Assembly: GCA_043228905.1 (NCBI GenBank)
Contig: JBHGNT010000001.1
Coordinates: 10,912,001 to 10,976,000, forward strand
Length of the DNA stretch: 64,000 nucleotides
DNA from: Azolla caroliniana
Taxonomy: Eukaryota; Plantae; Polypodiophyta
Direction: 5' to 3'
Part shown: piece after piece, positions 13,810-49,218 of the stretch
How the letters are laid out: each line of letters opens with the position of its first letter
Position numbering within the stretch: the first letter of the stretch is position 1
Position numbers and translations under genes: made by a program
The notes under the pieces: model-generated
Told to the model about the DNA's origin: nothing
The model's database searches: none
The model's input: only the letters and a program-made list of their open reading frames with translations

Positions 13810-15204
13810 TCCGGTTATCGAACTCTACGTAGTTCGGTTGGCCGAACAATTCCTTAGCTTCTTGCGTGTTCAACTCCCCTGGGTCTGTCACTATCTTCTC
13901 GACGCACCCATACCAGTAGACTACGTCTTCGATTAGGAACTGGCATACCTCCACGATTGTCTTGTTTGTTAAGGTCCGACCCTCCACCTGGTTCGTTAGG
14001 TCCTCTCTTGCAAGCACCAGGTACCGCATCTGCCCCACCCCCATCGGCATCGTCACTAAATCGACCATCTACTTGAAGTGAATGGTTGACGGGTAAGTTG
14101 GGTGTAGCTTGTCGCAGTGTTGGATCGTCGAATGCATTTGGCAGCTCTCGCATGTGGACACAAAGTGGTGCACATCTTTGTACATTCCGGGCCACCAGTA
14201 CCTCTCCTTCAACTTCTCGAACATGGCACATGTCCCTCTATGTCCGGACCAGGGACTCTCATGAAATTCCGACATCAGCACCGACTACTCATCCTTCGTC
14301 ACCACGTAGAGTGGTGTGCCGGTTTGCTTCTTTGGATGCCGCAAGATCTTCCAGTCTCGTAGGAAGAGCTTATATGCCTTCTTTCGGATCTGATTCGCTT
14401 CCTCCTTTGTCCACGATGTGTCCGACGCTATCGTGCTTAGGAACCTTCCGATTAGAAGCCTCTCCCTGTTGTCTTCGTCCTCGTCAAACTCGTTCTGGGT
14501 CGGAGTGCTTTGTTTGTTCGCCGACATTTGAGCCAACTCGAAGAAGTCCACGCCGACTTCTTCGTCTTCCGATACCGTGCCGTCCTCTCCTTTGAACCGT
14601 GCTCTTGACAAGATATCGGCCATGGTATTGTCTCTCTTGGAGATGTGTCGTATCTCCTGATGCAGGGACTTAATATATGCAACCCACCTGAGCATTGCAA
14701 GGTCTGGAGTTGCGCATCCAGAAACCATATCGAGAATGGGTAGGCAATCCGTCTCGATTATCACCTCCGTCCCGACTAGATAATCCTTGTTGGCCTTCAC
14801 CGCCGAAACGATACCCACAATTCGCGCTTAACTTGGGCGTATCCTTGTTGCCGCTCACTTAGGACCTTTGTGCTGAATCAGATGGTGAACCACGTTCCGG
14901 CTTTGTCTTCCTGGTTTATAACCCATCCGATTCTGGTCATATTTGTGTCCACCGTAACGAAAATCAGGGTGTCCTTCTTGTACACTGCTTTCCGAAGAGC
15001 CAACGCCACCGTTAGTCTCCAGACCTCCTCTGAGTGCTCTTCTCTCCAGTCGGACCTTCACCCTTTCTTCAGCAAGCCGTAGAGTGGCTCTACGATGTGT
15101 GCGTAGTGCAGGGTCCAAATATGATAAAAGGCACATGCCCCTAATAACCATCGAACCTCGGTGGTTGTCTGACATTCCTCCTTCATGGCCGCGATGGTCT
15201 CCAC

Positions 15205-15417
15205 TAGGGATCGGCAACGGCTCGGCTCGGCTTGAACCTTGCCAAACCGGCTCAAGCTGGCTAAGCCGTTTATAAACTTTAGAGAGAGGGGGAGAGAGAG
15301 AAAGAGAGAGAGAGAGAGAGTGAGGGAGACTAAACAGACGATGGGAGACAGAGAGAGTGAGTGAGGGAGAACTACACGAGGGGGGAGAGAGAGAGAGAGG
15401 GAGGGAGACAACAAATA

Positions 15418-15454
<37 letters not shown>

Positions 15455-15495
15455 TACACAGAGGGGGAAGAGAGAGAGAGACTACACAGAGGGGG

Positions 15496-15528
<33 letters not shown>

Positions 15529-15803
15529 TCGAGACCACAGACGTGAGAGAGAGTGTGGGAGGGAGAGCTTGTACAATGTATACTATAGTATATAGTGGAT
15601 CATCTAATATAATATAGTATATAATATAATTGTGTGCTTTTACCAAAAGAGAGAGAGAGAGAGAGAGAGGTTTCCAAACCGTTTACCAAGCCGGTTCACA
15701 ATCCGGTTTAGCCTTGAGATCCCGTAAATGGTTTAGGCTTAGCCGGTTTGGCTTGATCCAAGCCAAACCGGCTAAGCCTAAACTGAACCATTGCCGATCC
15801 CTA
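15205..15803. mobile_element. Non-autonomous hAT element, 599 bp, with GA-microsatellite-rich core
   Basis: TIRs TAGGGATCGGCAA / TTGCCGATCCCTA. Perfect 8-bp TSD GTCTCCAC at 15197-15204 and 15804-15811. Interrupts gypsy pol. Confidence 0.93.
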
Positions 15804-17274
15804 GTCTCCACCTTTGTTAGAGACGGTTTTCGGCCGTATGGCCGCACAAGTGACCGACCACTAGGATCTTGGACTGTTTGAATGCCGATTTCTCTCCAGA
15901 GAAGGTGAGTAGTGCAAGCCTCTGCAATATCTTCTCGCCGTCGGAGATGTGGTTCGACAGGAAGTTCCGGCTTCCATCCTGTCAGACTGACTTGTCCTTC
16001 ACATCCTCCGGACATCCCTTGATTGGGATGTCGTCTACAAACGGCATGGTGATGTCTGGGATGCAGTCCCTCTACACTTTGTTCATTGCATTCACCATGT
16101 GTGCCACAAAATTCGTCCCACCTTGTGGTAGGGTACACATCCGAACTAAGTCGAGAGGGGTCCGCATCATCGTGATGTCCCTGCTTTCAACGGCTAGTTG
16201 GAATTGGTTGTACCCAGAATATAAGTCGCTGACTGAGTAGGTAGAGCTTCTGGTGAAGGCTTCCACGAACTCATCGATTGTCAAACTGACTCCTACATTT
16301 CGAATGGTCACCTTGTTGACCGGCTGGAGATCCTGAATGAAGTGCAATGTGCCGTTCTTCTTTAGCACCGTGAACCACCGATTCGAATAAGGGGCACTCG
16401 ACGGTTTGAGAATCCCCATCTCTACCTTCTCCTTGAGCAACTCCATCAACTTCGGGATGTGAGCTCTCGATACCGGAATCGGTTTCAGACTCCACGGTAC
16501 ATGTGGTACGGTGAATATCACCATCTGTTCCACGATCGTCAGGTCGACGCACCCGATCTCCCCCGGTGAGAATGCAAAGGCTTTCTTGTTGTCGTGCCTT
16601 TCGGCGCTGGATCGTTGCGTGAATCGGGTGGGAACCGCTGGGGTTTTGGACTAGGAGGAGGAAGAATTTGAGATGATTCTAATTATAAATAGATTATTAG
16701 AAACTTGGGAATCCCACAAGTATAATGTATTTTATTAATTAATATTTAGATAAGAATATGTATTTAGATTGAAAGAGATAGATATGGAAATCTCGTGAAT
16801 CCCACGAGTATAGTTTATTTCGTGAATCCCACAAATATATTTTATTAATTGGTGTCTTTTAGAAATATATCCAATTTCCAAATATTTCACACACCTTATT
16901 ACATTGTGCTCCCCATCCTTATATAGTGATGAGAGAGTCTTAATAATCCATGCTTTTTCTCTAACAATAGACTATATGCTTTATCTAACATGCTTTTTCT
17001 AAAGTGATCTTGCTTTTTCTAACTTGATGCGTTTTTATCGATTATGGTGTTCATGCACGCTACATGTGCATACGTAGCTTTTTCTTTTATCATGTGTTTA
17101 TCCTATTGCCGGATATTGTTGAGCTCTTGCCGGAGCTCCAACTTCCGAGCCGTGGTACTTGCGACGGAAATCTTCTGGAGATTTTCTCGGGCCTCCTTCG
17201 GTGACTTTGTGTCTCTAATGTAGATGAGCATCTGGTCGTACACATAGGACCTGAGGCAGTACAACACTTTGCCC

Positions 17275-17425
17275 GCTAGTATGCACTTATGTTTCTAACG
17301 TTTACTTTTGTAACATTAATGATATGTTAGTATAATGGTAAGGCTTTGCATTATTAACATGGAGGTACAGGGTTCGAATCCTGCCTTATGCATGTAACAA
17401 TTTTTTCTTCTATTTACAAATTTGT
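17275..17425 (+). other. AT-rich ~150-bp insert with a tRNA-like Pol III promoter (SINE-like)
   Basis: A-box-like TAGTATAATGG (~17328) and B-box GGTTCGAATCC (17371-17381). Abrupt compositional break next to the PPT of the gag-only element. Confidence 0.5.
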
Positions 17426-19622
17426 CTCTTTATCCGGTGAGAGACTCTCACCGGCCTTCTTTATCCGGCTCTTTATTCTGCTTGATCCGGGCCTCCTTAC
17501 CGGTTCCTCCTTCATCCGGTTCTCACCGGTTCTTCTTACCGGTTCCTCCTTGCCGATTCTTCCTTCATTCGGTTCTCTTCGTCCGCTTCTCACTGACTGT
17601 CACCGACTTTCTTCATCCGATTCTTGCCGGGTCTCCATGTCCCATCCGAAGGGACCAAAAATGCAATTTTCTCATAGTGTGCGATTTACACTACGACACT
17701 CGCCCCCTCCAAACCCGCACATCCTCCGGTATGTGCCGAAGTTGTCGGTGATTGTTAGTCTCCTCCGTCCGGTCTCCACCCGATTGGTTTCGTTGCCAAT
17801 CCCGTTGCCGGTTTTGTTCGGTTGCAGGTTTCTCGTAATTCTCCTTTACTCGTAGTACACTCCATTTCTCTCGCTATGTCGACTTTGTCTCTCCATTTTG
17901 AGCATATCCATTCTTTCCACTCGAACCATTGTCGCCATCCGATCCACCATATTCTTTGTTCTCTCTCGTCATAGAATCTCACGTTAGTGTTTAAGTTCTT
18001 CCTGTTAGAGCCTTTCTTCTTTGTTGAGATCTCATCGTTAATAATACCCTTAAAATCCGCTTGGCCCTTGTTATCCATGGTAGTGTCTTTTCCGGATCGG
18101 TCTCGCCCGATCGACTTTCGGTTGAGTCGTATTAGCTTCTTTCTGATTCGGTCTCATTTGATCGGCTTTCGGTTGAGTCGTATTAGCTTCTTTCCGATTC
18201 GGTTTCGTTCGATCGGCTTCCGATCAAATTCGTATTCAGTCGAATTGGACTCGGTTGATCGGTTTTGACCGAGTCGGCCCCCTTCCGGGTCGTTTTTTGT
18301 TTAGATCGGAATTTCGTCCAGATCATCTTCCATTTGAACCGGCTTCTGACTTTACCTTTCTTGCTACCACCTCCCGTCTCTCCGGTCTCACGTTGGTTCT
18401 CAGACAAAACCGCCGAAGTCTCTAGAATTAGTGGGCAGGAATCCTCGGTATTACTGTCCTCCATCGTTTCACCCATGGCCACCTTCTCGGCTATCTCTCC
18501 GTCACATGCATCAATGTCCTTCGTTTTCTCTCCGCCATCTTCTGTCTCTTCGGTCTCACGTTGCTTTTCGAACGCAATTGCCGAAGTGTCTAGAACTAGT
18601 GGTGGGAAAGTTTTCATACGGCCATCCGCCATTGATTCATCCATAGCCACCTCCGATTCGATGTCATCTTTCGTGGTGACCTCCTCAATCAAGTCCGCCT
18701 CGCACTCTTTATCTCCCTCGATCATGCAAGCATCGATTATGCTTACCCCTTTTTCACCCGATGTTTCAGATAGTTGTATACTGAAACCTTCTTTCGTTCT
18801 TGAAGTGGTGTTCGCCACTCTCAAGTCATCGACCTTATCCTTGGCCGTCATTCTTTCGCAAGACAAGAGGATGTCTTGTTCTATACCCTCTCCCGTAGTA
18901 TTGACGTATCGTACTTCGGCCTTCTTATTAGCCACATCGTTCATCCTTAATCGATCATCCCTTATAGGCCATGTTGTTGCCGACAATATTCTCATCTTCC
19001 TCTTATCATGTCTTCGGCATACTCTTTCGACTTCAACCCAATCCTCGGTAATACCATTTGCACCGTCATCATCTTCGAGTTTGATCCCGATGTCCATCCT
19101 TTCTTTCCGATCGATCAATCTTACGAACATTAGGACTTTATCTTCTCCCAACAATCTTTGTTCCCGCTCCGAGAGTCGAGCAAAATGATACTCGAACTCT
19201 AGGAATGCTTGTGTCGCGCTTCGGTGGGTCTTCTCCGATGCCACCCATTCTTCGAACTCGCGTCGATCTCGTCCCTTCGATCTCTCGTAGTCATATGCCT
19301 CTCGTAAAGCTTCTTCAAAGGAACCCCATGTAGGGTTTTGTTGCCGTATCTTGTGGATTTTCTCTAGTAGCTCATCCATGGCCACCCGACTTAAGGATAT
19401 CACTTGCAATTCTTCCGGTATCCCATGTCACATCATCGCCGCCTTGTAGTCACATAGATAACGTGACACATCCTTTCCGTTGAATTGCCCGTTTCTTTGC
19501 ACAAGCCCTCTACTTCCGATTTGATCTCCGACATCAAGTGTTGTTCTTGGAGTATGCGGTTAAGCATCATCGTTATCATGCACATCACCTCTTGTTGATT
19601 CTCCATCTCCTTGCCACTCGCT

Positions 19623-19640
19623 TTCACGTCGGGTTCACCA
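19623..19640 (-). promoter_or_regulatory. Primer-binding site complementary to tRNA-Trp 3' end
   Basis: TTCACGTCGGGTTCACCA on + matches the 3' end of plant cytosolic tRNA-Trp plus CCA (from recall). It lies 4 nt from the LTR. Confidence 0.8.
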
Positions 19641-20939
19641 ACTGTGTCGTGCCTTTCGGCGTCGGATCGTTGCGTGAGTCGGGTGGGAACCGCCGAGGTT
19701 TTGGACTAGGAGGAGGAAGAATTTGAGACGATTCTAATTATAAATAGATTATTAGAAACTTGGGAATCCCACAAGTATAATGTATTTTATTAATTAATAT
19801 TTAGATAAGAATATGTATTTAGATTGAAAGAGATAGATATAGAAATCTCGTGAATCCCACGAGTATAGTTTATTTCGTGAATCCCACGAATATATTTTAT
19901 TAATTGGTGTCTTTTAGAAATATATCCAATTTCCAAATATTTCACACACCTTATTACATTGTGCTCCCCATCCTTATATAGTGATGAGAGAGTCTTAATA
20001 ATCCATGCTTTTTCTCTAACAATAGACTATATGCTTTATCTAACATGCTTTTTCTAAAGTGATCTTGCTTTTTCTAACTTGATGCGTTTTTATCGATTAT
20101 GGCGTTCATGCACGCTACATGTGCATGCGTAGCTTTTTCTTTTATCATGCATCTTGGGTCAATCGAGGGGCGTCTGTTGCACGATTGGCCGCCGCCTTCC
20201 CTTCAGGCTTGAGCAATGTAAAGATCGCGCACCATCTTTGTCAGCTCTTCTAGAGCCGCGCCCCCGGACGATCCCTCGACCACATTGGCTGGAACCGTGG
20301 CCGACTTGAGCCACCGTCTTGTCTCTTCCGACCGAGTCGGAATCTCCTCCGACCTCTTCCCGATAGTCGGGCCGGCTGTCCATGACCCCACGTCGTTCCA
20401 TTCTCGCAGTTTGTCAAAACGGCCACAAACTCTTTTGACCACGGCCCAATCAGTCATGAGCCCTTCATTCGTCTCCAAGAGGAGACCCACCTTCTCTCGG
20501 TCAAGTGTGTCGACGAACTTAAGGAATAGTAGGACCTTGTTCGTATTGAGCACGATCTAGTCTAACGCCAAGAGCTGAGCGAATAGTTTTTCAAACTCCT
20601 AGAGGAGCACCGATGTATTCTTGGGTGAAAGCATGCGAGTGGAAACAATTAGCTATGTCCTCGACATAGCTAATTAGCTATGCAAAAAGCTACCATTGAT
20701 AAATAGTCATTTTTGCAAAAAGTTACCATTTATAAATTAGCTATGCAAAAAGATACCATTGAAAATAGTAGAGAGTTTTAATTATGTAAATGAGCACCAT
20801 AAATGTGCAACATAAATTGATATGTGCACCATAAATTATATACTGAATTCCTAGGTCCATTATGCATGATCCTTTGCCACATCACTTGGGCCATCTCTAG
20901 TTGAGTATTCTGGCTTAGATTACTACCATTGTTGCTAAA

Positions 20940-21945
20940 CCCTATTGAGTCCACTCCTCCATTGCCGCCATTCTACACTCAGTTACTGGCACTGTGTGGT
21001 CCAAGTATCATCTGCCACTATTCAATCCGACGGAGTTCACTCCTCCATTGCCGCCATTCTACACTCAGTTGCCGACACTGTTTAGTCCAAACATCATCTA
21101 CCAAGTTCATTCCTCCATTGCCGCCACTCTACACTCAGTTGCCGCTACTGTGAAGGTCGTATATTACCGCCACATTTCAATCCGATGGATTTAACTCCTT
21201 CTCCACTGCCATCGTTCTACTCTCAGTTGCTGTCATTGTGCGTTCCAAGCATCATCTGCCACAATTCGATCTGACAGAGTTCACTCCGTCGCCATCATCC
21301 TACACTCAGTTGTCGCTACTATTCGGTCCTAGATTGCTGCCACTTTTCGATTTGACGGAGTTCACTCATCCATTGCCATCATTCTACACTTAGTTGCCGC
21401 TATTGTTCAGTCATGTATTGCTGCCACTTTTCGATCTGAGGGAGTTCACTCCTTCTCCACTGCCGCGATTCTACTCTCAGTTGCCGTCATTGTGCATTCC
21501 AAGCATCATCTGCCACTGTTCGATCTGACGGAGTTCACTCCATTGTCATCATTCTACACTCAATTGCCGCTATTGTTCAGTCCTGGATTGCTGCCACTTT
21601 TCAATTTGACGGAGTTCACTCATCCATTGCCATCATTCTACACTCAGTTGCCGTGACTGTTCAACCGTGTATTGCTACCACTTTTCGATCCGAGGTAGTT
21701 CACTCCTTCTCCACTGCCGCGATTCTACTCTCAGTTTTCGTCACTGTGTGTTCCAAGCATCATCTGCCACTGTTCCATCTAAAGGAATTCACTCCTACAT
21801 TGCCATCATTCTATACTCAGTTGCCGCTATTGTTGGGTCCTAGATTGCCAAAACTATTCAATCAAACGGAGTTCACTCCACTGTCGTCATTCTACAGTCA
21901 GTTGCCACCACTATTCGGCCCTGGATTATCGCCACTGTTCGGTCT
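20940..21945 (+). repeat. Minisatellite of 81-89-bp monomers organised as a 254-bp higher-order repeat
   Basis: GAGTTCACTC-type anchors at 21188, 21277, 21358, 21442, 21531, 21612, 21696, 21785, 21869 (spacings 89,81,84,89,81,84,89,84). Confidence 0.85.
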
Positions 21946-22102
21946 TGAATTTCAATAACTATTCCGTCTATTGATTATCTTGTGTATTGTTGTGTATAAT
22001 CTTGTGTATTGCAGAATATTTTTGTGTATTGTTGTTGCCCATAACCATCTTTAATACGTGTCTTTTTTTCGGCAAAATTAGGGTTTAAACCTATCAAGCT
22101 AA

Positions 22103-25100
22103 ATGGAAGGGGAAGGAGGGTGTTTAGAATTACCCCTCAATGATCATTAGGATAGGGATGACGCTATCAGGACACAACAAGCGATACGAAAGTATTGGGC
22201 AGGAAAAAAAAAGAAAACATCGTCAATTGTTGAATGATACGAAAGCCACACTCACTAAAGGTAAAGATAGTATTGGTTGCAATATAGGTTTAAATATCAT
22301 TGAGAATGGAAGTAATGAGACTACTATCATAGAGAGAAAGGTTGTAGACTATTTCAATGTTCAAACCAAGCACATCAACAATGAAGACAAGAAGGTAGTA
22401 CTTTATGGAATATTAAATGATCCATCGATAAAGGAGTTAGTTGATTCTGATGGTCTTAATGCAAACATAACATTTGTACTAGTAAATAATCTCCGTAATA
22501 GTTTCGTATTCATGAGGAGGTCAGAAGATGATCTTGTCTTAAAAAGGTCTAGTCTAATGATGTTACTTAATAGTGATGTCGACGATATTAACATGAGTGT
22601 GCTATCTGAGGTAATTGGTGTTAGTAGAAAAAGTGTGTACAATACATTGAACCAGATAGTTTCCTCGGGTGAAGGAACTAGTCTCCTAAAGCTAACAACA
22701 AGATCTAAGCCAATGCCACCCATAACATAAGAAATCAAGGATATAATCACAATATTTTGGACTAATGAGAGTAGGGTTTCACCCAGTAAGAAGGGTTTAT
22801 GCAGGAAACGTGTTGCAAGGAGTCAATACGAGGAGCATCCCATTCATCTTCTTGTTGTACCTCAGGTATTTACATTTATCTCAACATTTGTTTTGACTTT
22901 TGAGCTTAGTTAGTTAGCTTATTAGCTACCTCCGAATATGACCATACCAGAATAGCTAATTACCTACCTCAGAATATGACCATAGCTAAATAGCTACCAG
23001 TAATAGCTAATGAGCTACCAGAATAGCTAATTAGCTCCCTCAGAATATGACCATAGCTAACTAGCTACCAGTAATAGCTAATTAGCTACCTCAGAATATG
23101 ATCATAGCTAACTAGCTACTAGTAATAGCTTAATAGCGATTGCCAATAGCTAATTTAGCTATTACCAGTTAATTCGCTACTACAATAGTTAATTAGCTAC
23201 CTAAGAATATCAAACATAACTATTTAGCTACTAGAATAGCTAAATAGCTACCAGTCATAGCTATTTAGCTACCACAATAGCTAATTAGCTGCTTATGACT
23301 ATAGCTAATTGGCTACTAGAATAGCTAATCCCCTACTAGAATAGTTAATTAGCTACCTAAGAATATGAGCATAGTTAATTAGCTACTAGAATAGCTAATT
23401 AGTTGTGTATGACTAGCTAATTAGCTAACTAGCTATTCTCAATAGCTAATTTAGCTATTATCAGCTAATTAGTTGCTAGGATAGGTAATTAGCTACCAAT
23501 CATAGCTATTTAGCTACCAGAATAGTTGATTAACTACCTATAATTATAGCTAATTAGCTACTAGAATAGCTAACTAACTATTCCCAATAGCTAATTAGTT
23601 ATTACCAGCTATTTAACTGCCAAGATAACTAATTAGCATCAAGAATAGCTAATTGGCTACCAATCATAACTGTTTAGCTACCATAATAACTAATTAGCTG
23701 CCTATGACTATAACTAATTAGCTATCAGATTAGCTAACTAGCTATTCCCAATAGCTAATTTAGTTATTACCAGCTAATTAGCTACTAGAATAGCTAAATA
23801 GCTACTAGAATAGCTAAATAGCTACTAGAATAGCTTATTAGCTGCTATAACAGGTTTGGAGCATAGCTAATAAGCTAATCAATATGTCCATTTTATTACG
23901 CAGGTTCATTTATTTATTAGGTTCAGGCGAATGCATCCAAATATCAAAGTTCAACTACGAACATTCAAGTCTCTTAAGCTACACTTTGTGAGACGCTTGA
24001 AGGATCGATACACATGTTGTTGCATTTACCATGTACAAATGGGTTTTTTCTAGGACTTTGTTAATCTACTACGTCACCATAGCGCCTCCCTAACTAATGT
24101 AGTTTGCACTTGTGAGTGCCCAATTTGTCGATCGAGCCCACAAGAGCATTGTAAATCATCTGAGCATGTTATCTCTTCCATGAGTTGTCTTTTAGATTTA
24201 GTATTGTGTCCTAGAGAAACTGAGGCCATCTTCCACAGTCATAAATGTGTTATAGGTTTATGTCAAGATTGTGGGCCTAGTAGATTTAGGTGGTGTCCAA
24301 ATGAATTGAGTAGTGAAATATTAATCTCTCTCAAGTTATTTGAGTAAGTTGACACCAATTTCGAAGGAAAGGTGTGTAAAAGAAAGGATCTAGTTAGGAA
24401 GTCGCTTAAACCAATGGATTTGGTGTCTCCATTTGTAGTATCTCTAGGAAAGTTCATTAAACACAACTTCATTTATTCATGGCAAGCCCATCAGTTTAAG
24501 ACTTGTAGATCTGATTTTCCAAATGATGTAGTAGTCTCAGTAGTAGATTTTGTAGAGAATTATACTTTCAAGCAGCAGAATGAAATTCAATCTATGCATT
24601 GATGTTCAACGCAGGTAACCATTTTTGTGCACATAACATATTTTCGAGTTTCAAGTGATGTTAAAAAAGTAATTCATTTTTTTATTTCTGATGATAAGAA
24701 GCATGATACCTTGTTCTTCCAACATTGTTTCAACTTACATTGGCAATGGTTATTAGCTAAAATTTTGGAGCTTACTCGACATTGGGTCTGGTCTGATGGA
24801 GCTGCGTCACAAATCAAGGCTAGAAGTCCATTTTATTTTGTTGGGAGGTATCCTACTATAACAGGTCTGGAGATGAGATGAATTTTTTTTGGGTCTGGCC
24901 ATGGTAAAGGTGAACATAATGGTGCAAGGCTGTTATAAAGCGGGCACTTACCCATGAGCAACTAAAGGTAGATGGTGTGCAGATGAATTGTGCAGCACAT
25001 GTAGTTGAATTTTTAAGAGCTAATATGTCAACGAGTGCAACTGGTGTTTATTCCTCGCAGGTCCGAGATATCAAACGTAAATTTTGGGAAGTGAAGATAG

Positions 25101-25744
25101 ATGAAGTAAATAGGGAGAAGACCTAGGAGTGCCAAGGAATTCCCGAATTGCGATCTCTCCATTTTGTTCGCAGTTATTCTAGGTTGGATGGTCATTGTAT
25201 TACGGTTAGAGAATTAACTTGTTTTTGCTTCCATTGTGTGCAGGGAAATTGGAGGTATTGTTTAAACAAAGCATATATTCAGAATTGGGAGTATCATACA
25301 TTGAACGATAAGGAAGCAGTTGATGGGGAAACATAAAAGAATGCTGACTTCCCATATCAAGAACGTGGAGATACTCCGAGTGATGTCTTAAATGTTGGGG
25401 ACAATTTTGCTGTAAATGCAGAAGAAGGCAATTCAAAGGGTGTTGATTTCCATATATTGAAGTGCACGGTTAGTAAACAGTGTGCAACGCATAATATATT
25501 AGATGCTTGGGGAAATGTTGTATCTACCAGGACATTCTACATCGAAGGTATTTTTTATGCAAGACTAGATGATTACGATTATGTGTATAGGCTATTAGAA
25601 GACAAACCAGGGGTGTACATGTACTCTCATTTGGTCAGGTGCATCAATGTCCCAATGTCGCAATATAATAGCTGGTCAGGTTTATACACAGTTAGTGCTA
25701 ATGTGTATGAAAGTATTTACAACAATATGCCATGGAATTTGTAG
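22103..25744 (+). pseudogene. Sola2-like DDD transposase pseudogene; intron 22866-23903
   Basis: Spliced ...HLLVVPQ|VHLFIRFRRMHP..., Cys-rich region (CCCIYH, CECPIC, CQDCG), VVDFVENYTFKQQNEIQSMH, ISDDKKHD, WSDGAASQIK, FFGSGHGKGEHNGA...KR, CFCFHC. Several stops and frameshifts. Superfamily assignment is from recalled motifs. Confidence 0.75.
22905..23880. repeat. Intronic array of palindromic AGCTAATTAGCT motifs (transposase intron)
   Basis: Dozens of TAGCTAATTAGCTA variants between the donor at 22866 (GT) and the acceptor at 23903 (CAG). Confidence 0.9.
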
Positions 25745-26165
25745 CTACAAGTAGCAATTACCAATTTTCTTGTAAAACAAACAAAGCACATGTATTGCAA
25801 ATAAATAGTTTAATGGACCTGTTTGGGAGTTTTTTTTTATTTTATATACAGTCTACTTTTTGTGCTTCTTCTATCAGTCTTCTATCTGATATATAGTTTA
25901 ATGATATCATTTAGGGTTCTTCTTTTCTGAGATACAGATTTACTCAAGTGAACCATGTACAAGTTAAAATAGTTTGCATAATTTTAAGAAAAAACACCAT
26001 CATGAAATCAACAATCCTGAACATACTCTTAAAATTACACAGTAGATAAGTTACTCAAAACAAGCAATTTAATTCTTCATTGATTAAGTGGTAGCAAATT
26101 ACATATTTATAACATCCCATTGCCAATGTCTTGAAATCGTCTATAAACAGCTAAGCTCTTGCTGG

Positions 26166-28030
26166 TCAGTGGAACTTCTCTACATATAGTTTGCATGTAG
26201 CTAGTTTGCAGCTCAATGTTTTCACCAAATAGTGTTCAGGCATTCCATCGAGTAGAATGAGACAACATTTGCGAATGTTGAAGTAATGTCGAAAATGTTC
26301 TGTATCCAGAATCAACGTATTGTCAGCATTATAATCTGGCCAAGTGACCGAAAAATCAAAAAGTCTTTTGAATCTTGCAACATCATTCTGCTCACAATTC
26401 TCTCGTGTCCACTAACCCTTGAAATGTTGTCGCCACTTCGGGAAGAATTTTTCTACACACTTCCACACATTTGTACGTGGTTTTTCGCTCCAAATAAACA
26501 AATCAAAATATTGCACATCCCACTCCAGAAATTGATTTGCATCCCTCCTTGGTGTCATATATCGCACACTCATCAAGACTTTATCAAGCTCTAAGATCAA
26601 GGCTCTTCTTTCAACTTCTAATGGTTTAGGTTTCCATTCCTGTAACTGAGCCTCTGTTACACCAATTACTGGTAGCACACGATCAAGGTCAATCAACTTA
26701 GGTTCTGTCGGCACAATTGGTGTCCTTTTCCTCTTCAAACCCCTGGTCAACTGTGTTGGGCCTGGCTTCACATTCTAGTGCTCTTGTGTTGTCGACTTAG
26801 TCATTGGCTCAGTGCATGTAGATACTGATCTGGTCGATATCAGCCCACTGGTATCACATGCTGCATCTACCTACAAAATCAGATCATTTGTGTCAGTTGC
26901 TACATCTACTTTCAAGATGTGGCCCTCTAAACACGCAACAACATCAATAGTTTCCACATTGTCATCGGCCTTAGGAGCAATAGATTCAAACCCTTTAGAC
27001 TCTACAACATCAGAAAACACCAACATATTCACACTCACAAAGTAACTAACAATCTCACAAAACAACATAATGAACATGAAATATTTTCCATCATAGGAAC
27101 ATGAACATAATTATCTTGGAGAAACATCATAGAGTTCCATTACATAATGTTTCTCCATCTACTTTCAGGATGTGGCCCTCTAAACACGCAACAACATCAA
27201 TAGTTTCCACATTGTCATCGGCCTTAGGAGCAATAGATTCAAACCCTTTAGACTCTGCAACATCAGAAAACACCAACATATTCACACTCACAAAGTAACT
27301 AACAATCTCACAAAACAACATAATGAACATGAAATATTTTCCATCATAGGAACATGAACATAATTATCTTGGAGAAACATCATAGAGTTCCATTACATAA
27401 TGTGGATCAAGCAACAACCAATCTGAGGTTTTACTTGTCCAAATAGATCATATTAAAACATCATAAAACCCTAGGAAAATCGCTAACAATCATATCCCAC
27501 TAATAAGTATTTCGCTCCAATTCAAGAGCCCCTTGATGGAGTAACTGGTCTTGTCCCCGATTGTGGCCCCTTCTTCACCCTTTTTCTAGCCGGTTGCCAA
27601 TTTAGCCTTGCTTCTTTGACCCATTGCGCAAGTGTGTCCTCCGACAACCTTTCCATCACCTCAACAACGGCTTGCAGATCAGCCGCGTCTTACACTAGCT
27701 TTTCCAGTAGAGTGGGATCTGTTTGGACATTATTAGTAGTTGGGCTCAGTGGGGTGGAATCAAGGTTTTGGGATTCGAAAAAATGTTGCATCAAGTGTTC
27801 AAAAACACTATTGTTGTGAACCTCAGATTTACATGTTGTTCCGAATATTTCATGGCTTTTCACATCGTTGCCTAATTCATTACCATCTTCCAAAAGAATA
27901 GGGTGGAGCTGATTTGAAGGAGATGTGATAGCAGGACTCTTACTTTCAGCCACGTTGGCAACTATCTCCTCATTGGTTGCAACGTCATCAGCACCAGACA
28001 GGTCATGCGCCCTCCTTAATCCACAAGATT
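26166..28030 (-). pseudogene. Transposon ORF2 with C-terminal FCP1/SCP (NIF) HAD phosphatase-like domain; catalytic residues altered
   Basis: Reading through the stop at 26412 gives RALILELDKVL...PRRDANQFLEWDVQYFDLFIWS...F.P...F..*WTRENC...FKRL...WPDYNADNTLILDTEHFRHYFN. This follows the NIF layout LVLDLD.TL / RP..DEFL / F.V.IWS / RE.C / KDL / NTLLVDD. Upstream exon 28030-~27500 begins after a TTGTAG acceptor. Confidence 0.65.
26903..27403. repeat. 248-bp tandem duplication (26903-27150, 27156-27403)
   Basis: Near-identical copies, reflected in ORFs 26871..27077 and 27127..27330. Confidence 0.9.
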
Positions 28031-28046
28031 CTACAACAACATGGTT

Positions 28047-29115
28047 GCTAATTAGCTACATCTTAGCTAACTAGCTATTCTTCAAGACTATGACAATAAC
28101 TAATTAGCTACCACTGAGCTAATTAGCTACTTCGCTTAGGTATGGTACTAGCTAATTAGCTAATAAACTAAAGTAGGGTACTAGCTAGTTAGCCACTATA
28201 ACTAAAGTATGGTAGTAGCTAATTAGCTACTACTTAGCTAATTAGCTACTGTACTAAACGATGGTAGTAGCTAATTAGCTACCACTTTGCTAATTAGCTA
28301 CTCAGCTAAAGTATGGTAGTCGGAAATTAGCTACCACTTAGCTAATTAGCTATTGTACTAAACTATGGTAGTACCTAATTAGCTACCACTTAGCTGATTA
28401 GCTAATTAGCTACTCAACTAAATTATGGTACTAGCTAGTTAGCCACTATAACTAAAGTATGGTAGTAGCTAATTAGCTACTATACTAAACTATGGTAGTC
28501 GCTAATTAGCTACCTCTCAACTAATTAGCTATTGTACTAAACTATGGTAGTCACTAATTAGCTACCACTCAACTAATTAGCTATTGTACTAAACTATGGT
28601 AGTAGCTAATTAGCTACCACTCAACTAATTAGCTATTATACTAAACTATGGTAGTAGCTAATTAGCTACCACTCAGCTAATTAGCTACTGTACTAAACTA
28701 TGGTAGTAGCTAAATAGCTACCACTTACATAATTAGCTACTCTGCTAAAGTATGGTAGTAGCTACTGTACTAAACTATGGTAGTAGCTACTGTACTAAAC
28801 TATGGTAGTAGCTACTGTACTAAACTATGGTAGTAGCTAATTAGCTACCACTTAGCTAATTAGCTACTGTACTAAACTATGGTAGTAGCTAATTATCTAC
28901 CACTTAACTAATTAGCTATTGTACAAAACTATGGTAGTAGCTAATTAGCTACCATTTAGCTAATTAGCTATTGTATTAAACTATGGTAGTAGCTAATTAG
29001 CTAAGTGGTAGCTAATTAGCTAGTGCACTAAACTATGGTAGTAGCTAATTAGCTACTGTACTAAACTATGGTAGTAGCTAATTAGCTACTGTACTAAACT
29101 ATGGTAGTAGCTAAT
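28047..29115. repeat. Array of ~52-bp units built on AGCTAATTAGCT palindromes (putative ORF2 intron)
   Basis: Unit ACTATGGTAGTAGCTAATTAGCTACCACTTAGCTAATTAGCTACTGTACTAA. Lies directly upstream (minus strand) of the acceptor at 28031. Confidence 0.9.
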
Positions 29116-30851
29116 CATGCCGATTAGATAACTGATGTCGGGTCGGGTGATTGTCAAATATATAAGGCTTCCGACGATTTGTCGGAACCGCTTCTCATCG
29201 CAGGCCGGTCCGGAGTTGGACGGAGCTTCAAGTTCCGGTCCAGGGGGGTGGAGATTGGTCGGCATTCCGTCATGCCGAACTTGTACAACATATTCAACAC
29301 ATAGTGTCTTTGTGAGAGCAATATGCCGTCGGGTGAGCGGATCACCTCGATCCTAAGGAAGTAGTGAAGGTCCCCTAGGTCCTTCATCTCAAATGCGTCT
29401 AACAGCTAGGACTTGACTCGGCTTATTTCCTCGAGTCCGGGTCCGGTGATGACTAGATCATCAACATACAGCAAGATGCAAGCCGGACCGTCTGGACCTT
29501 GCCGGATGAACAACGAAGAGTCGGAATTGGAGGCCGCAAACCCCATCTTATGCAACCGGTGCGTGATCTTCGCATTCCAAGCTCGGTGGGCTTGCTTCAG
29601 GACATAAAGTGACTTCTTCAGCCGGCATACTGCTGACTTGTTCATCTCCAACTGGAAACCGGGGGGTTGGGTCATAAAGACCTCTTCTTCAAGATCGCCA
29701 TGAAGAAATGCATTCTTCATGTCCATCTGGTTAAGATGCCACCCCCTTGCGGCAGCAACCGCCAGCACCACACGAACCGTCGTCATCTTCGCTACCGGAG
29801 CAAAGGTCTCGTCGTAGTCGATTCCATGGGTCTACGCGTATCCCTTCGCCACTAACGGGCCTTGTACCAGTTAACCGAACCGTCAACATTGTACTTCACT
29901 TTGTACACCCACTTACATCGGATCGGTTTGCAGTGTCGGGGAGGGTCAACTAGGTCCCATGTGTCGTTCGCATCAAGTGCTCACATTTCTTCCTCCATAG
30001 CGGCACACCAATTTGCATTCTTTGCCATTTTTGCGTAGCTCTCCGGCTCACGCACTTCCACCACCTTGGTCATGTACGCATAGTGATGCGCCATGTACTC
30101 ATTGTACCCGTACCGCTTCACGGGGTTCTTCTGGCAGGAAGATTGGTGTAACTTATCGTTACCTGGTTTGAGGCCCTTCTTCGCCGGTTCGGTCTTCGTT
30201 GCTGAAGATCCGCCTTCTTCTTTTTTAGAGCCGGATCCGCTTCGATCCGACTCACCATTGCCAGTCTCGTGCTCTGGCATCTTCCTCTTCCTCTTTTCCT
30301 TGCGTGTGAACCGTCTCCTTGGTTCCTTGCGCGGGGGGAACACGACAGAGTCTCCACTACTCATCGGTTCATCTTCCGACTGGTCTGTCTGACCCAGTTG
30401 CTCGTTCAGCCCGCTCAACCGAAACAATTCCGAACTCACCCCTAGAGTCTTGAACCCTTCATCTTCTAACTGGACCGGTTCAGGCTCACTAGCCTCATCC
30501 TCTAGTATCGGGTCGGGGTTGGAAGTCAGAGCCGGTCAGTCATACCATGATCTCGTCTCATCAAAATCAACATCCTGGCTAACTCAGACCTGCTTCGTCC
30601 GGGGGTTATAACATTTATACCCCTTTTGCTCATGTGAGTAACCGACAAGGATGCATTTCTCCAACTTTGCATCCAACTTCCTCCGCTTCTCATCCAGCAC
30701 ATGCACATATGCAATGCTACTGAATATCCGAAGGTGTCACAAATTTGGCTTGCACCCTAAATATAGCTCATGCGCGAACATCTTGTCACCGATCCGGTTT
30801 TGGATATAAACGGTCGTCCGGACCGCCTCAGCCCAGTAGAATTTGGGCATA
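29116..30851 (-). mobile_element. Ty1/copia fragment (IN C-terminus, RT) of a GC-richer family
   Basis: MPKFYWAEAVRT, EPESY..A...W.AAMEEEM, QMDMKNAFLHGDL, LYVDDL, MKDLGDLHYFL. Confidence 0.85.
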
Positions 30852-32753
30852 CTATGATGTATGCCTTCATTTTGATATAAAATTTGAAATTCATGAGACA
30901 TACTCACCACCACCATCAATTTGAAGACTTTTAATCTTTGATGATGTTTGCACTTCGACTGGAGCCTTGTATTCTTTGAATGCTTGATAAGCTTGACTTT
31001 TGTACTTGAGAAAATGCAAGATTGTAAATCGACTAAAGTCATCTATAAAGCTAATGAAAGATTTGGCTCCACTAAGAGAAGGGGTTGGAAAAGCTCCACA
31101 TAGATCACTATGTACTAATGCAAGAGTGGTAGTGGCTCTAGATCTATGCTTTGGGAAGGGTTGTTGGGGCATTTTCCCAAGGATACAACTTTCACACAAA
31201 GAGATGGGCTTGAAAGGTTCTTTTGGCAAACTATGGACTAGATTATTATATTGTAATGTTTTTAGAGCATTGAAATGCATATGACCTAGACAAAAGTGCC
31301 AAAGAGAAGAAGGAGAATGAAGATTAGTTAGAGATATAGAAGATTGAATTGGGGTAGAATGATGTGCTCCTAAAATAAGAGATGTAGGAATGCATTTTAT
31401 GGGATATAAGCCTTCTTCTCGTTTACAACATGTTCTAATAAGTTCTCCAATAGAGGCTTTATGTTTAATAATAGCATGGTTAGGATGAAATTCAATGATA
31501 GTACCATTTGTCATTGCTTGACTAACCGATAGCAAATGTTTGGTGATGCAGCCCGGGACATAGAGAACTTCATTGATTGTGAAATGTCTTCCTCTTGTGA
31601 CTTCAAAAGTAATATCACCCTTGCCAATAGCTTGTTTAGTCCCATTATTTCCAAATCTTACAATGATAGGAGGTTCAACTTCCTTATAGTTACATAACCA
31701 ATCTTTTCTATTAGTTAAGTGGTTAGTAGCACCAGTGTCAAGATACCAAATGTCTTTTACATTACTTGGATTTGGAGTGGTAGCGGAATGTGATTCGGCA
31801 ATGAATGCTTGAAGGACATCGTCATACTTGTCACCATTTTGATATCCATCTCCTACGACTTTTTCATCATCCACCTCTTCTTCAACAAGATGGGCGGGCT
31901 TGTACACACCTCCACGGTTGATAATTCTTGAAATTTGACTTTGTGCGACAATCTTTGGTTGCATGATTTGTACGTTTGCATATTTTACAATAGGTGTTGT
32001 TGAACCGCATTGCTCGTTGTTTAATGTTCTGATCTTTCTTTATCCATGGTTTTGAGTTTTCTCCTCTTTGAGTGAATCTTGGGTTTTTGAGTAATTAAGA
32101 AGCGCTTGAAGTGTATGCGCTTGTTGGGCATCGTGTTTCGGCTCGTAGATAGTTTGTAAGTGCTTCCACATTTCATGAGTCGTGTCCATTTTTCGCAATG
32201 TTTTTCTGGTGCCATCACTTACGTGCATTAGAATTTCCATTCTTGCGCATAGGTCTTTTTCCTCATACTCTTCAAGTTATTCGCCTTTTTCAGGTTTTGT
32301 CAACGATCGTGAAATTATGTCCCATACTTTATTATATTTAAAAAGTAATTCTAATCTTGCCTTCCAAATTCAATAATTTGTGTCTGATAATTTCTCGATC
32401 ATGAATTTTTGCATGTTCAATTGCGACGATGACATAGATTGTGCCTTTTTTGCAGAGGGTTGTCCGGATCAGCGCACAACAGACACAAAATTGTTTTTCG
32501 TTACTTGACAATCTTGGACACTATGAATATGATTTTTTTTGTATGGGCATGAAAGTTAAATTATGAAAAGGGCATGTGTTTTGTGATTTAAGAAAGGCAT
32601 AGACTATAAGGTTATTAGGTCGTTTGGCTCTGATACCATGTAGCGAAAAGAAGAGAAAGAGAGAAGAAAGAGAGATAGAAAGAAGAGAGAGAGAGAGAGA
32701 GAGAGAGCCATTATATTATTGCGCTATTTCTATTACATCATTGGTGGTGGCTT
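30852..32753 (-). mobile_element. 5' part of a Ty1/copia (LTR remnant, PBS, deleted gag, PR, IN N-terminus), inverted relative to 32782-37505
   Basis: PBS GGCTCTGATACCA at 32626-32638. ORF 30891..31964 translates identically to 34527..35600 except at its end. Confidence 0.88.
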
Positions 32754-32781
32754 CCGTAACCATATCGGTGGTGGTCTTATA

Positions 32782-35700
32782 AAGCCACCACCAATGATGT
32801 AATAGATATAGCGCTATAATATAACGATTTCCTAGAATTGTGTGGGAAGTAAGCAAAAAGATCCAAAAGACGCATAAAAGCAAAATTTTGTGTTCCGGTT
32901 GGATACAAGATATAGAAAAATGCTTTGGTAGATGGGATGCAAGACACTTGCTTCATGATGCATCATTAGATTCCTCTGTAAATGAGGCTTTTTTGCAACG
33001 CCAATGTATCATGACATGGGACAAATGTGGAGGCTCATGCTTCACACATTATACTACACATGTTGCACCTAACTACAAAACCATATTCTTTGCGGAATGG
33101 GGAAATTGTACACATCGAAACATGTTAGAGCCCATACCGTTATCTGCCATTCGAACCATTGCTTCCATGCGACTTAACTCACATGCATTGCAATGTGAAA
33201 CAAGGTGTTGGGGCACAAGTGAAGAGAGTGGTCAGCTCTGCACACTTTGCCCTAAACAAGTTCGCGAGTCTAAGTATCACACTTTGATACAATGCTCTAC
33301 CTTCGATCATATTCGACCATGCTTTCCACATCTCTTCGACCAAGCCCAATCCTTGCATGAATCCTCTCACAACCACAATGTGCACTCTCGATTGCAACAT
33401 TCATTGGTAAAGTTCTTGAACATCAAGAGTCACTACTCACTTTCACATGTATCACGTGAAATGTAATATTTTTTGTCTCATTGGTCATATTTGACCTCCG
33501 AAGACGATAATATAATCTATCTATCTCTCTCTCTTTTCATTCTATATCTCTTTCTTCGCTCTTTCTCTTCTTTTCCCTACATGGTATTAAAGCCAAACAA
33601 CCTAATAGCCTTACAGTCTATGCCTTTCTTAAATCACATAACACATGCACTTATCATAATTTAACTTTCATGCCCATACAAAAATAATCATATTTATAGT
33701 GTCCAAGATCGTCAAATAACGAATGACAATTTTGTGTTTGTCGTGCGCAGATCCAGACAACCCTCTGCAATAATGGTACAATCTATGTCGTCATCGCAAC
33801 TCAACATATGAAAATTCACGATCGAGAAATTATAGGACACAAATTATCGAATCTGGAAGGCAAGGTTAGAATTACTTTTTAAATATAATAAAGTATGGGA
33901 CATAATTTCAGGATCATCAACAAAACCTGAAAAATGCGAAGAACTTGAAGAACTTGAAGAAAAAGAATTGTGTGCAAGAATGGAAAATCTAATGCACGTA
34001 AGTGATAGCAATGGAGAAACATTGTGAAAAATGGAGACAGCTCAAGAAATATGGAAACACTTACAAACTATCTACGAACCGAAAAATAACGCCCAACAAG
34101 CGCATACACTCCAAGCGCTTGTTAATTACAAAATGATTGACGAACAACCAATTGGTGAATTTCTATCAATATGGCAAAAGAAATTAGATGATGTGTTAAC
34201 TTCTAGATTAGAAATCCATGATAAATTACAAAAGATTCTCCTTCTTGGTGCTCTTCCTCACTGGTGGTTCACTTTTAAAACCACCCAAAACTCTAGAAAT
34301 TTTCCAACACTAATTGATCTTCTTGCAAACATTAGAGAGGAGGAAACAATGTGTTCACAAAGGTCTTCAAATTCAACTCCAAGTATGGCAATGGTAGCAT
34401 ACAAGAACAAAAGGTTCACCCAAAGAGGAGAAAGCTCGAAGCCGTGGATAAAGAAAGATCAAAACACAAAACAAGGAGGAATGCAGTTCAACAATACCTA
34501 TTGTAAAATATGCAAACGTACAAATCATGCAACCAAAGATTGTCGCACAAAGTCAAATTTCAAGAATTATCAACCGTGGAGGTGTGTACAAGCCCGCCCA
34601 TCTTGTTGAAGAAGAGGTGGATGATGAAAAAGTCGTAGGAGATGGATATCAAAATGGTGACAAGTATGACGATGTCCTTCAAGCATTCATTGCCGAATCA
34701 CATTCCGCTACCACTCCAAATCCAAGTAATGTAAAAGACATTTGGTATCTTGACACTGGTGCTACTAACCACTTAACTAATAGAAAAGATTGGTTATGTA
34801 ACTATAAGGAAGTTGAACCTCCTATCATTGTAAGATTTGGAAATAATGGGACTAAACAAGCTATTGGCAAGGGTGATATTACTTTTGAAGTCACAAGAGG
34901 AAGACATTTCACAATCAATGAAGTTCTCTATGTCCCGGGCTGCATCACCAAACATTTGCTATCGGTTAGTCAAGCAATGACAAATGGTACTATCATTGAA
35001 TTTCATCCTAACCATGCTATTATTAAACATAAAGCCTCTATTGGAGAACTTATTAGAACATGTTGTAAACGAGAAGAAGGCTTATATCCCATAAAATGCA
35101 TTCCTACATCTCTTATTTTAGGAGCACATCATTCTACCCCAATTCAATCTTCTATATCTCTAACTAATCTTCATTCTCCTTCTTCTCTTTGGCACTTTTG
35201 TCTAGGTCATATGCATTTCAATGCTCTAAAAACATTACAATATAATAATCTAGTCCATAGTTTGCCAAAAGAACCTTTCAAGCCCATCTCTTTGTGTGAA
35301 AGTTGTATCCTTGGGAAAATGCCCCAACAACCCTTCCCAAAGCATAGATCTAGAGCCACTACCACTCTTGCATTAGTACATAGTGATCTATGTGGAGCTT
35401 TTCCAACCCCTTCTCTTAGTGGAGCCAAATCTTTCATTAGCTTTATAGATGACTTTAGTCGATTTACAATCTTGCATTTTCTCAAGTACAAAAGTCAAGC
35501 TTATCAAGCATTCAAAGAATACAAGGCTCCAGTCGAAGTGCAAACATCATCAAAGATTAAAAGTCTTCAAATTGATGGTGGTGGTGAGTATATGTCTCAT
35601 GAATTTCAAATTTTATATCAAAATGAAGGCATACATCATAGAATATCAACACCACACACACCACAACAAAATGGTGTATCTAAAAGGAAGAATAGATCAC

Positions 35701-37505: not shown

Positions 37506-38084
37506 ATTAAATTATTTTGGGCTTCCAAATTTAGTAAGCATATGACAATGTGTGTAAGAGATGATAAAATAAGTTGAGCGATACAATGCATGCCAAAGTA
37601 TCGAATGGGCTTTGTATCATCTGTAATCTGCCACACTTATGAGACAATTTGGGAAGGGAGAAAAAAGCCTTTCAGGTGAGCCCTTTATCGAGAACTTTGA
37701 ATGTCGTAATTGGCCTTATCTTTGTCCATTGTGAGGCATACCAAAATACAGAGGCTCAGGTGTTGGTACCTCCAGATGGATGAAGATACAAAATCTCCTT
37801 TCAAAGCTCGTGTGAGTAAACATGGCTGATTCAAGAATAATAAAAGGCCAAAAAAACATTAAAATATCTGTTTTCAACATAATATGGGATGTTAATTTGT
37901 TTTATTCCCTTGTCCTTCTGATCATAACATGGAATGGTCATTTTGGTTTTTCAAAGTTTATGAAGTGCATCCCACATAACCACATATATCTCAGTGAGTA
38001 TACCTTTGTTCACTAAGTTCATGCATAGCATGTACAAGATGTTGTAGTAAATGATCATCAAATAAAATGGATGAAATTCCCGGC

Positions 38085-48650: not shown

Positions 48651-49218
48651 GAAGAAGATTGGTTGATTGTTTGGGATGCCCGGGGGGATGGTACAAAAAC
48701 TACAAGAAGAGGAGTCCAAAATGATAATGTTGTGTTTCTAGAGAAGGACGATGGATGGATGACTCTTGGTACATTGGAATGATGAATGGGCGATGATTAA
48801 GATGAGAAGGAGGAAGAGGATAGTGGCTGGTATTGAAAGGATGGATATTTAGTTTTAAGAGAATAAGGGGAAAGAATATAGCCACAAGAAAAGAAGAAGA
48901 AAGGGGAGGCCCACACGATGTATGTGAGAGGAAGAATGACTATGGAATGGAAGGGAAATGGATGCAACAAAAGAGTCCACCACCACCACCATTTCTTCTT
49001 CTTCTTCTTCCTTGCAAGTTTTCTTCCTTTTTCCTTCATAGGCCTCCTCCTCCTCCTTAGTATGAAGGTTTTCCATTACTTACTTTAGTTCCAAGGGGAG
49101 GGGGGGGGTTGTGTGTATTTTGTGTGGTTAAGAGTAGTGTAGTGGTGTAGTAGTAGATAGTAGGTAGTAGGTAGTGTAGTAGTAGTGCCTCCTCCTCCTC
49201 CTCCTCCTCCTCCTTACT

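Follow-up and report, generated by a model that had tools for sequence, protein, structure and literature searches.

A stretch of 64,000 nucleotides from the fern Azolla caroliniana (contig JBHGNT010000001.1; hereafter the window) carries at 20623-29115 a dead copy, truncated on the right, of a high-copy cut-and-paste DNA transposon of the Sola2 type, in which a spliced transposase gene is faced by a convergent second open reading frame (ORF2) that is a resident of the element and ends in a NIF domain, the domain of the FCP/SCP phosphatases of the HAD group. We propose that this NIF is a catalytically dead domain that binds phosphorylated host proteins for the benefit of the element, a reading whose chances of being right or wrong we regard as about evenly balanced. 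A preliminary description of the same DNA had paired a Sola2-like transposase with an accessory gene of probable pseudophosphatase character, and the analysis presented here bore out most of that description while correcting several details.

ORF2 in the window copy is composed of the following features.

26107..27001, minus strand: last exon of ORF2, with a linker, a basic patch resembling a nuclear localization signal (NLS; RGLKRKR) and the NIF domain; stops at 26873, 26777 and 26414.
26591, 26489, 26369, 26312 and 26306-26301, minus strand: NIF residues, respectively the E of motif I, S, K, ILDT and DT.
26896..27403: tandem duplication of 253 bp (98%) covering an ORF2 intron-exon junction.
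27525..28052, minus strand: probable internal ORF2 exon, acidic and of low complexity, with a stop at 27692 and the donor unplaced.
28056..29115: palindrome array with a 52-bp unit, a probable ORF2 intron, ending at the 29115 junction.

All ORF2 motifs quoted in the preliminary description fall in one minus-strand frame (26169-26771) with one stop at 26414. The NIF/HAD identity claimed for them was confirmed both by profile and by fold: with X at this stop, the frame scored 29.7 bits against Pfam NIF (PF03031; cut-off 21.8 bits) with an E value of 6.3e-7 over 26579-26271, and the model of an intact homolog, P0007, folds like SCP1, UBLCP1 and Tim50. Four other window segments had no significant Pfam match, and none was obtained for the exon at 27525..28052. 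The last exon is 70% identical to P0007 over 325 columns. Its decay comprises, together with the rest of the gene, four stops, a loss of about 30 bp at 26188-26194 with a frameshift, and the 253-bp internal duplication; the N-terminal part of ORF2 has been lost, and the portion left in the window has no recognizable RING.

In the AlphaFold2 (AF2) model of P0007, the block formed by residues 171-340 reached predicted local distance difference test (pLDDT) values of 83-97, and the top Foldseek matches were UBLCP1, Tim50, CTDNEP1 and the SCPs. The VIA Z scores of P0007 were 16.6 for SCP1 (1t9z), 15.9 for UBLCP1, 15.6 for Tim50, 14.7 for CTDNEP1 and 14.2 for Fcp1, with other HADs at 13.0 or below and the first three within 1.0 Z of each other. 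The likeness to the FCP/SCP (NIF, PF03031) phosphatases thus amounts to Z 14.2-16.6 with a root-mean-square deviation of 2.4-3.3 Å over 146-158 residues and extends to the motif II Ser and the motif III Lys, whereas ExD replaces DxD, DT replaces DD or DN, and identity is confined to 15-19%. When the PDB was searched with a profile of the NIF clade described below, UBLCP1 was the only significant match (E 4.4e-6), and neither SCP1 nor Fcp1 appeared among the matches at E up to 1; phmmer with the window ORF2 alone gave no NIF match in the PDB. Judged by profile, UBLCP1 is the nearest solved relative of the ORF2 NIF. As a further difference from these phosphatases, the ORF2 proteins show no UBL or BRCT match, and Pfam searches of P0007, P0042, P0056 and P0089, proteins that may be incomplete, found neither a BRCT nor a double-stranded RNA (dsRNA)-binding domain.

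The catalytic motifs were counted in a census of 51 clade rows, 39 of which have motif I. DxD occurs in none of these 39, the first position being D in 20, N in 11 and E in 8. The motif III Lys is invariant (51/51), Ser or Thr stands at motif II in 46 of the 51, and the second position of motif IV is D in 37 rows, T in 10, N in 3 and S in 1. Motif I reads DLN in both L011 and L014; among intact domains, P0007 combines ELD with DT, P0042 DLN with DN and P0213 DLN with DD. Since the 14 rows outside the clade are mostly DxN (DxD in 1/13), the canonical base was already missing in the source group. The family of the window copy reads ELDKV at motif I and DT at motif IV, in place of DxDx(T/V) and of the acidic Mg pair; both divergent motifs had been pointed out before and are present, but DT had been assigned to motif III and belongs, in the HAD numbering as we take it, to motif IV. 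In Fcp1, according to PMC4436666, Asp170 serves as nucleophile and Asp172 as general base; the direct Mg ligands are Asp170 and Asp298, and the residues that hold the phosphate are Lys280 and Thr243. Because E and T stand at the positions of Asp170 and Asp298, both direct Mg ligands are altered in the window family. Its NIF is likely to be a pseudophosphatase, as first suspected, and clade members with DxN and DD might keep some activity. The lack of DxD in all 39 rows, combined with a Lys kept in all 51, makes a non-catalytic phospho-binding module likely.

The nearer relatives of the ORF2 NIF are not the FCP/SCP phosphatases but an uncharacterised group with DxN, found in other eukaryotes and in viral contigs. 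In a midpoint-rooted tree of 50 NIF rows, whose domains were cut with a profile made from clade members and which therefore favours that clade, 29 rows including all seven fern-annotated ones fall on one side of a branch with 100/99 support, and the other eukaryotic and viral NIFs fall on the opposite side. The three transposase-adjacent NIFs represent three different subclades of the 29-row clade. A NIF scan of viral contigs yielded seven distant loci, all outside the clade; these contigs (L001-L007) encode DxN-type NIF proteins that form a branch of their own, on which five rows were placed. Named relatives are five proteins of Ceratopteris richardii and others of Adiantum. The Ceratopteris proteins P0020, P0021, P0023, P0127 and P0128 and the Adiantum proteins P0053, P0056, P0087, P0089 and P0189 belong to the transposon NIF clade or border on it, and several of these ten are labelled 'FCP1 homology domain'. 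These fern-annotated NIF proteins may be transposon open reading frames.

ORF2 is a resident of the element, as the preliminary description had suggested on the strength of a shared palindrome; linkage in other records, high read depth and the shared element-specific motif all speak for it. Tail-to-tail pairing of transposase and ORF2 is seen again in four further records, of which two are distant. All counts over 80 loci refer to the top-ranked 80 among 298 stretches confirmed in the transposase-led scan, and the NIF profile found its domain in two of these 80, L011 and L014. In both, NIF lies on the opposite strand immediately downstream of the transposase, in the same layout as in the window; their transposases share 50% and 46% identity with the intact transposase P0098, and their NIFs are 27-30% identical to the window ORF2. 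In the protein P0112, whose subfamily is about 64% identical to the window ORF2 region, the NIF frame continues into IATCSYKFHGILL, the antisense of the last transposase codons, and this is the only match to both genes among 213 proteins. In addition, 25615-25805 and 25943-26114 are joined by contig 19 of run X13, which extends no further into ORF2 than its stop region. Because the linked records are too divergent, a single orthologous locus is excluded. Summed depth relative to the left-junction contig was about 1000x for ORF2 and 1670x for the transposase in X1, and about 930x and 1430x in X5, values that give an order of magnitude and no copy number. A further run, X19, which may be RNA, had a few contigs about 81-91% similar at low depth over the element and was left out. 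Both outcomes that had been set beforehand as able to overturn the proposal turned out otherwise, with significant NIF profile and structure matches and with ORF2 homologs linked to transposases elsewhere.

ORF2 is also under coding constraint. From 40 listed of 160 variant rows, the 13 upstream of the frameshift were counted and three downstream rows were left out; 10 of the 13 NIF-frame variants fall on third positions (p=0.0016 against one third), and seven are synonymous. Three second-position variants are private to the window copy. Third positions account for three of six transposase variants, a number too small for a control. Moreover, the cluster of the intact P0007 has 25 members, and NIF open frames stay at the same position in distant elements at about 30% identity. 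Considering that NIF is kept in place at such identity despite repeated catalytic loss, selection for binding is suggested.

The facing gene is the spliced DDD transposase that the preliminary description had placed on the plus strand, and its two exons and GT-AG intron were located as follows.

22103..22865, plus strand: transposase exon 1, with stops at 22148 and 22728 and a frameshift near 22210; the frame is open in L010.
22866..23903, plus strand: transposase intron, GT-AG, packed with TAGCTAATTAGCTA-type repeats.
23904..25744, plus strand: transposase exon 2, with a Cys-rich region, six stops and a frameshift at 24927.
24546, 24795 and 24918, plus strand: catalytic sites D1 (VVDF), D2 (WSDG) and the D3 site.

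Exon 1 gave weak matches of helix-turn-helix (HTH) type, under the Pfam cut-offs. The third catalytic site is Asn in the window copy and Asp in all aligned homologs. Together with this replacement, eight stops and the two frameshifts (near 22210 and at 24927) mark the decay of the transposase, so that stops are found in both genes, as had been stated. Two aligned blocks show 60% and 48% identity between the window transposase and the intact P0098; the intact P0098 and P0212 themselves have no significant Pfam match. The assignment to Sola2 holds by motif order, since the layout of the DDD motifs follows the published Sola2 alignment (PMC3627910 Additional file 10) by eye, not by profile score. 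The shared order runs FY/FW..SR..P.KK, LRP/LK..CCxxH, a Cys cluster and DFAENY..Q.EIQS.HW..Q.T, and continues with ISDD..HD, SDG.A.Q.K and FF..GHGK..DG.G..KR. Differences from known Sola2 are the plant lineage, the spliced transposase, the intronic motif arrays and the convergent modular ORF2. Sola elements are reported to make 4-bp target-site duplications (TSDs) and to occur in moss (PMC10741241), Sola is listed for Ceratopteris (PMC6890710), and a giant Sola-1 is described from Ectocarpus in an article whose main text does not contain the word 'phosphatase' (PMC12477816). The named transposase homologs come from the liverwort Calypogeia, and transposase scans of viral contigs and genome contigs returned no match.

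NIF is an optional module of a larger ORF2. In the transposase tree, from which 23 near-duplicate rows were dropped, all NIF-bearing elements fall inside one 9-row clade (Shimodaira-Hasegawa-like approximate likelihood ratio test, SH-aLRT, 99), where NIF is present in the window element, L011 and L014. L010, L013 and L015 were too short or interrupted to be scored for NIF, L015 diverging past the start of the intergenic region. Facing ORF2 frames lie inside the element ends in L046, L049 and L058, and in L008 and L009 the facing frame ends on a basic patch resembling the one that precedes NIF in the window. A RING segment occurs within 5.6 kb of the transposase end in nine loci, a tenth match about 9 kb off being left uncounted. 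A shared N-terminal ORF2 domain was found in 13 of the 80 loci, five of which seeded the profile.

L020:7026-8732(-), L046:1371-1817(-), L030, L045, L049, L058, L065, L066, L069, L081, L082, L084 and L085: loci with the N-terminal ORF2 domain of about 110 amino acids.

The Adiantum protein P0056 also begins with this domain (35% identity to the L046 frame, E 7e-22) and is predicted as a single protein that combines the N-terminal domain with a RING-like segment and with NIF; P0089 consists of a RING-like segment, recognized by eye, and NIF. The N-terminal domain, whose model is of low confidence (pLDDT 47.5), is a candidate DNA-binding domain. Since NIF is confined to one clade while many outside loci keep a facing ORF2, the N-terminal domain or RING, it is likely that NIF was added at the C-terminus of a modular ORF2 that is older; and since sister families lack it, the module would be helpful, not essential.

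Both genes of the window element are associated with the same palindrome. Exact copies of TAGCTAATTAGCTA number one at the left end, three in the transposase intron and 17 in 28056-29115, and at one mismatch or fewer the 64-kb window holds 58 matches, all inside 20623-29115. The palindrome had been said to lie in introns of both genes; its exact matches in the transposase intron and in 28056-29115 stand, whereas the latter interval is only probably an ORF2 intron, read as such because AG precedes the exon at about 28052, with the upstream exon missing. Family-specific motifs pack the transposase intron in four of four families, the top 9-mer being private to each apart from one stray match. 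This 9-mer also occurs on the downstream or ORF2 side in two of the four (window, L009) and at the left end in two (window, L014). The TAGCTAATTAGCTA-type repeat is found in the transposase intron of L010 as well. Short repeats of their own fill the transposase introns at L009:1460-2140 and 4600-5148, L008:3480-4640 and L014:1341-2890 (TACCATTAA, TAATTAGTA and AGGTGAAAA). Transposases themselves can be motif-binding activators (bioRxiv 10.64898/2026.08.24.746577), and since they can bind and activate through such motifs, the arrays may not be those of ORF2.

These results suggest a path by which the gene could have arisen. Sola2 elements of seed-free plants would carry an old, convergent, modular ORF2 consisting of an N-terminal domain, an acidic linker, a coiled coil and often a RING, to which one transposase clade would have added a DxN-type NIF once, at the C-terminus. 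Repeated loss of the nucleophile Asp, with retention of the Lys and Ser/Thr that hold the phosphate, may then have turned the domain into a phospho-Ser/Thr reader or trap. ORF2 might be recruited to the family-specific motif arrays and support expression or mobility of the element, akin to VANC or Ulp1-type cargo, with RNA polymerase II's carboxy-terminal domain (the Pol II CTD) as just one candidate host target. A more specific form of this proposal, a modular anti-silencing protein whose N-terminal domain binds its own arrays, with a RING in some families, and whose dead FCP/SCP domain grips the phospho-CTD or another phospho-marked chromatin factor, is in our judgement doubtful. If true, it would describe a transposon-encoded reader of the phospho-code that sustains its own transcription, and many fern genes annotated with an 'FCP1 homology domain' would be transposon open reading frames.

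Several observations weigh against a phospho-binding module with a role for the element. A transposase was shown adjacent for only three of the 29 tree rows, and the clade itself is favoured by the way its domains were cut. The nucleophile Asp is kept in 20 of 39 rows and the second motif IV Asp in 37 of 51, so that some activity is possible, and the invariant Lys may be structural. No NIF was found in L008, L009 and L012 of the 9-row clade, of which L009 and L012 have about 1.2 kb readable and L008 has an open transposase frame. NIF is likewise missing in all 35 informative loci outside that clade, near-duplicates counted, the informative set being the 40 of 80 loci in which the transposase end is nearly complete and is followed by 1150 bp or more. 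In L008 and L014 no match to the top intron 9-mer was found downstream. In addition, the N-terminal ORF2 domain has no Pfam match and no credible PDB match, with only a weak lead in the ESM Atlas, and we know of no NIF that binds DNA.

A narrower version would make ORF2 a reader or decoy specific for the Pol II CTD that shields phospho-CTD marks at the element. The FCP/SCP fold with SCP1 tied for the best Z, the basic NLS-like patch ahead of NIF and the retained phosphate-binding residues agree with it, but the profile-nearest UBLCP1 acts on the proteasome subunit Rpt1 (PMC5451543), and fungal Tim50, which has the same fold, is reported to lack phosphatase activity and to bind presequences (PMC8346121). 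Considering also that the four ORF2 proteins searched have no BRCT or dsRNA-binding domain and that distant NIF relatives are already DxN, CTD specificity, which none of the tests favours, is unlikely.

Equally tentative is the possibility that NIF is an atypical active phosphatase in the DxN/DD lineages, with catalytic decay only in some families including that of the window. The Asp residues retained at motifs I and IV would suit an enzyme, and DxN may work, since Asn occupies the third motif I position in 13 of the 14 outside rows. However, the general acid/base Asp is missing wherever the nucleophile is kept, 19 of 39 rows, from separate subclades, have N or E in place of the nucleophile, and the ELDK family is still under coding constraint.

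That ORF2 serves as a transposase cofactor, with NIF as a protein-contact module of the transpososome, seems a rather poor prospect. In Harbinger elements the second protein is a transposase cofactor, and a convergent ORF2 sharing its N-terminal domain among 13 loci, within the element ends where these were delimited, would suit such a role. As far as is known, single-gene Sola2 elements are nevertheless the norm, and NIF is optional even inside its clade. The animal Sola2 entries of the published alignment appear there solely as transposases (PMC3627910 Additional file 10). A complex predicted, with no alignments used, from the L011 transposase lacking exon 1 and the NIF of L011 scored 0.04 against a mark of 0.34 and speaks for neither side.

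A neutral passenger, captured in the manner of a Pack-MULE and now decaying, would be consistent with the altered catalytic residues, the lack of NIF in sister families and the stops of the window copy, yet it is improbable given the third-position excess, the 25-member P0007 cluster and the frames that have stayed open at that position in distant elements despite identity of about 30%. That ORF2 is a host gene neighbouring the transposon is scarcely credible: in Ceratopteris and Adiantum, annotation treats its relatives as ordinary 'FCP1 homology domain' genes, but the high depth, the linkage in four other records, the shared element-specific motif and the distribution of the five Ceratopteris loci over four chromosomes speak against it.

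The ends and flanks of the window copy are as follows.

20203..20622, minus strand: Gypsy-type gag fragment hosting the insertion, with TCTT as the four bases preceding the terminal inverted repeat (TIR).
20623..20647, plus strand: left TIR, opening with GGGTGAAAGCATG.
20650..20790: subterminal repeats with one exact TAGCTAATTAGCTA at 20667.
20948..21945: tandem array with an 84-bp unit (higher-order 254 bp), 5' of the transposase and unrelated to the palindrome.
29116..29831, minus strand: Copia-type reverse transcriptase (RT) fragment, cut mid-domain at the right junction.

The left boundary of the element had been placed correctly. The exact 13-mer of 20623 also opens L009 and L014 and sits upstream of the L087 transposase, each time with different flanks; L049 closes with the same 13-mer, and the window left end matches the L046 right end in 22 of 25 bases, the L046 transposase fragment having 85% DNA identity. 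Because the 13-mer recurs with differing flanks and the end is matched by that of L046, 20623 is the true left end, and these short TIRs, with GGGTGAAAGCATG common to L009, L014 and L087 and to the right ends of L046 and L049, resemble Sola2. The Sola2 TIR consensus attributed to Bao 2009 reportedly begins G-R-G. The right boundary at 29115, by contrast, did not stand as an element end, being the junction of the palindrome array with the cut RT fragment, and no right TIR was found in the window. Since the array meets an RT fragment that we take to be of Copia type while the left flank is a gag fragment, presumably of Gypsy type judging by its translation, the right end was lost by deletion or rearrangement; the TSD is therefore unreadable at this copy. 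The single-side 4-bp flanks of the window element and its relatives are TCTT, TTAT, TTTT, ATGT, TACT, CGTT and TAAT. In a strict search for TIRs with TSDs, L058, a distant relative, was the sole locus of the 80 to pass, with ATAA on both sides, a 4-bp duplication of Sola2 kind; a relaxed search for TIR pairs gave mostly chance pairs. L058:5122-17642 is a complete 12.5-kb Sola2-type element with TIRs, the ATAA duplication and an ORF2 with RING and N-domain segments, in which NIF was not found.

The surroundings in the window form a dense nest of long terminal repeat (LTR) retrotransposons (823-6280, 8801-13807, 14285-20600 and 29116-37545). This includes an element of Copia type whose 633-bp LTRs are identical (823-1455 and 5648-6280), and LTRs of 505 bp that are 98% identical (16590-17094 and 19645-20149) within Gypsy-type sequence. 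A 1.2-kb inverted duplication occupies 30849-32089 and 34402-35644. Probable host gene exons at 49186-50862(+), 57529-59208(+) and 6558-6926(+) comprise a low-complexity open reading frame and kinase-like segments, one with GSGSFGTVYEG at about 59170 and another at about 6800, both of which we take to be MAP3K-like.

The capture of enzyme domains by DNA transposons is known, as with Ulp1 on VANDAL/KIU and Fanzor on Sola2, and cargo of NIF/FCP1 fold was not found described. Full-text literature searches, with hits mostly judged by abstracts and including PMC5751038 and bioRxiv 10.1101/2021.09.26.461848, returned no Sola element with a NIF/FCP1 gene; a Repbase or Dfam entry is possible. ORF2 provides a defined protein for studying how transposons in huge fern genomes cope with host silencing, and some 'FCP1 homology domain' annotations of Ceratopteris and Adiantum are likely to be transposon open reading frames. 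The closest parallel within the superfamily is offered by the Sola2-Fanzor1 chimeras of Dictyostelium and Polysphondylium, reported to carry a second protein gene on the 3' side; their cargo is a TnpB-like nuclease, whereas the cargo here is a HAD/NIF module in a longer ORF2 (PMC3627910). In the VANDAL members of the Mutator-like elements (MULEs), the accessory gene VANC is similarly accompanied by family-specific short motif arrays in introns and ends, and the VANC protein is reported to bind such arrays (PMC5735166). The Ulp1-bearing KIU genes resemble ORF2 in another respect, as a captured host enzyme domain that has been long retained with its role unassigned (PMC13317346). VANC and KIU belong to another superfamily and involve other domains, and DNA binding and anti-silencing have been shown for VANC, whereas for ORF2 they are an analogy drawn from its arrays.

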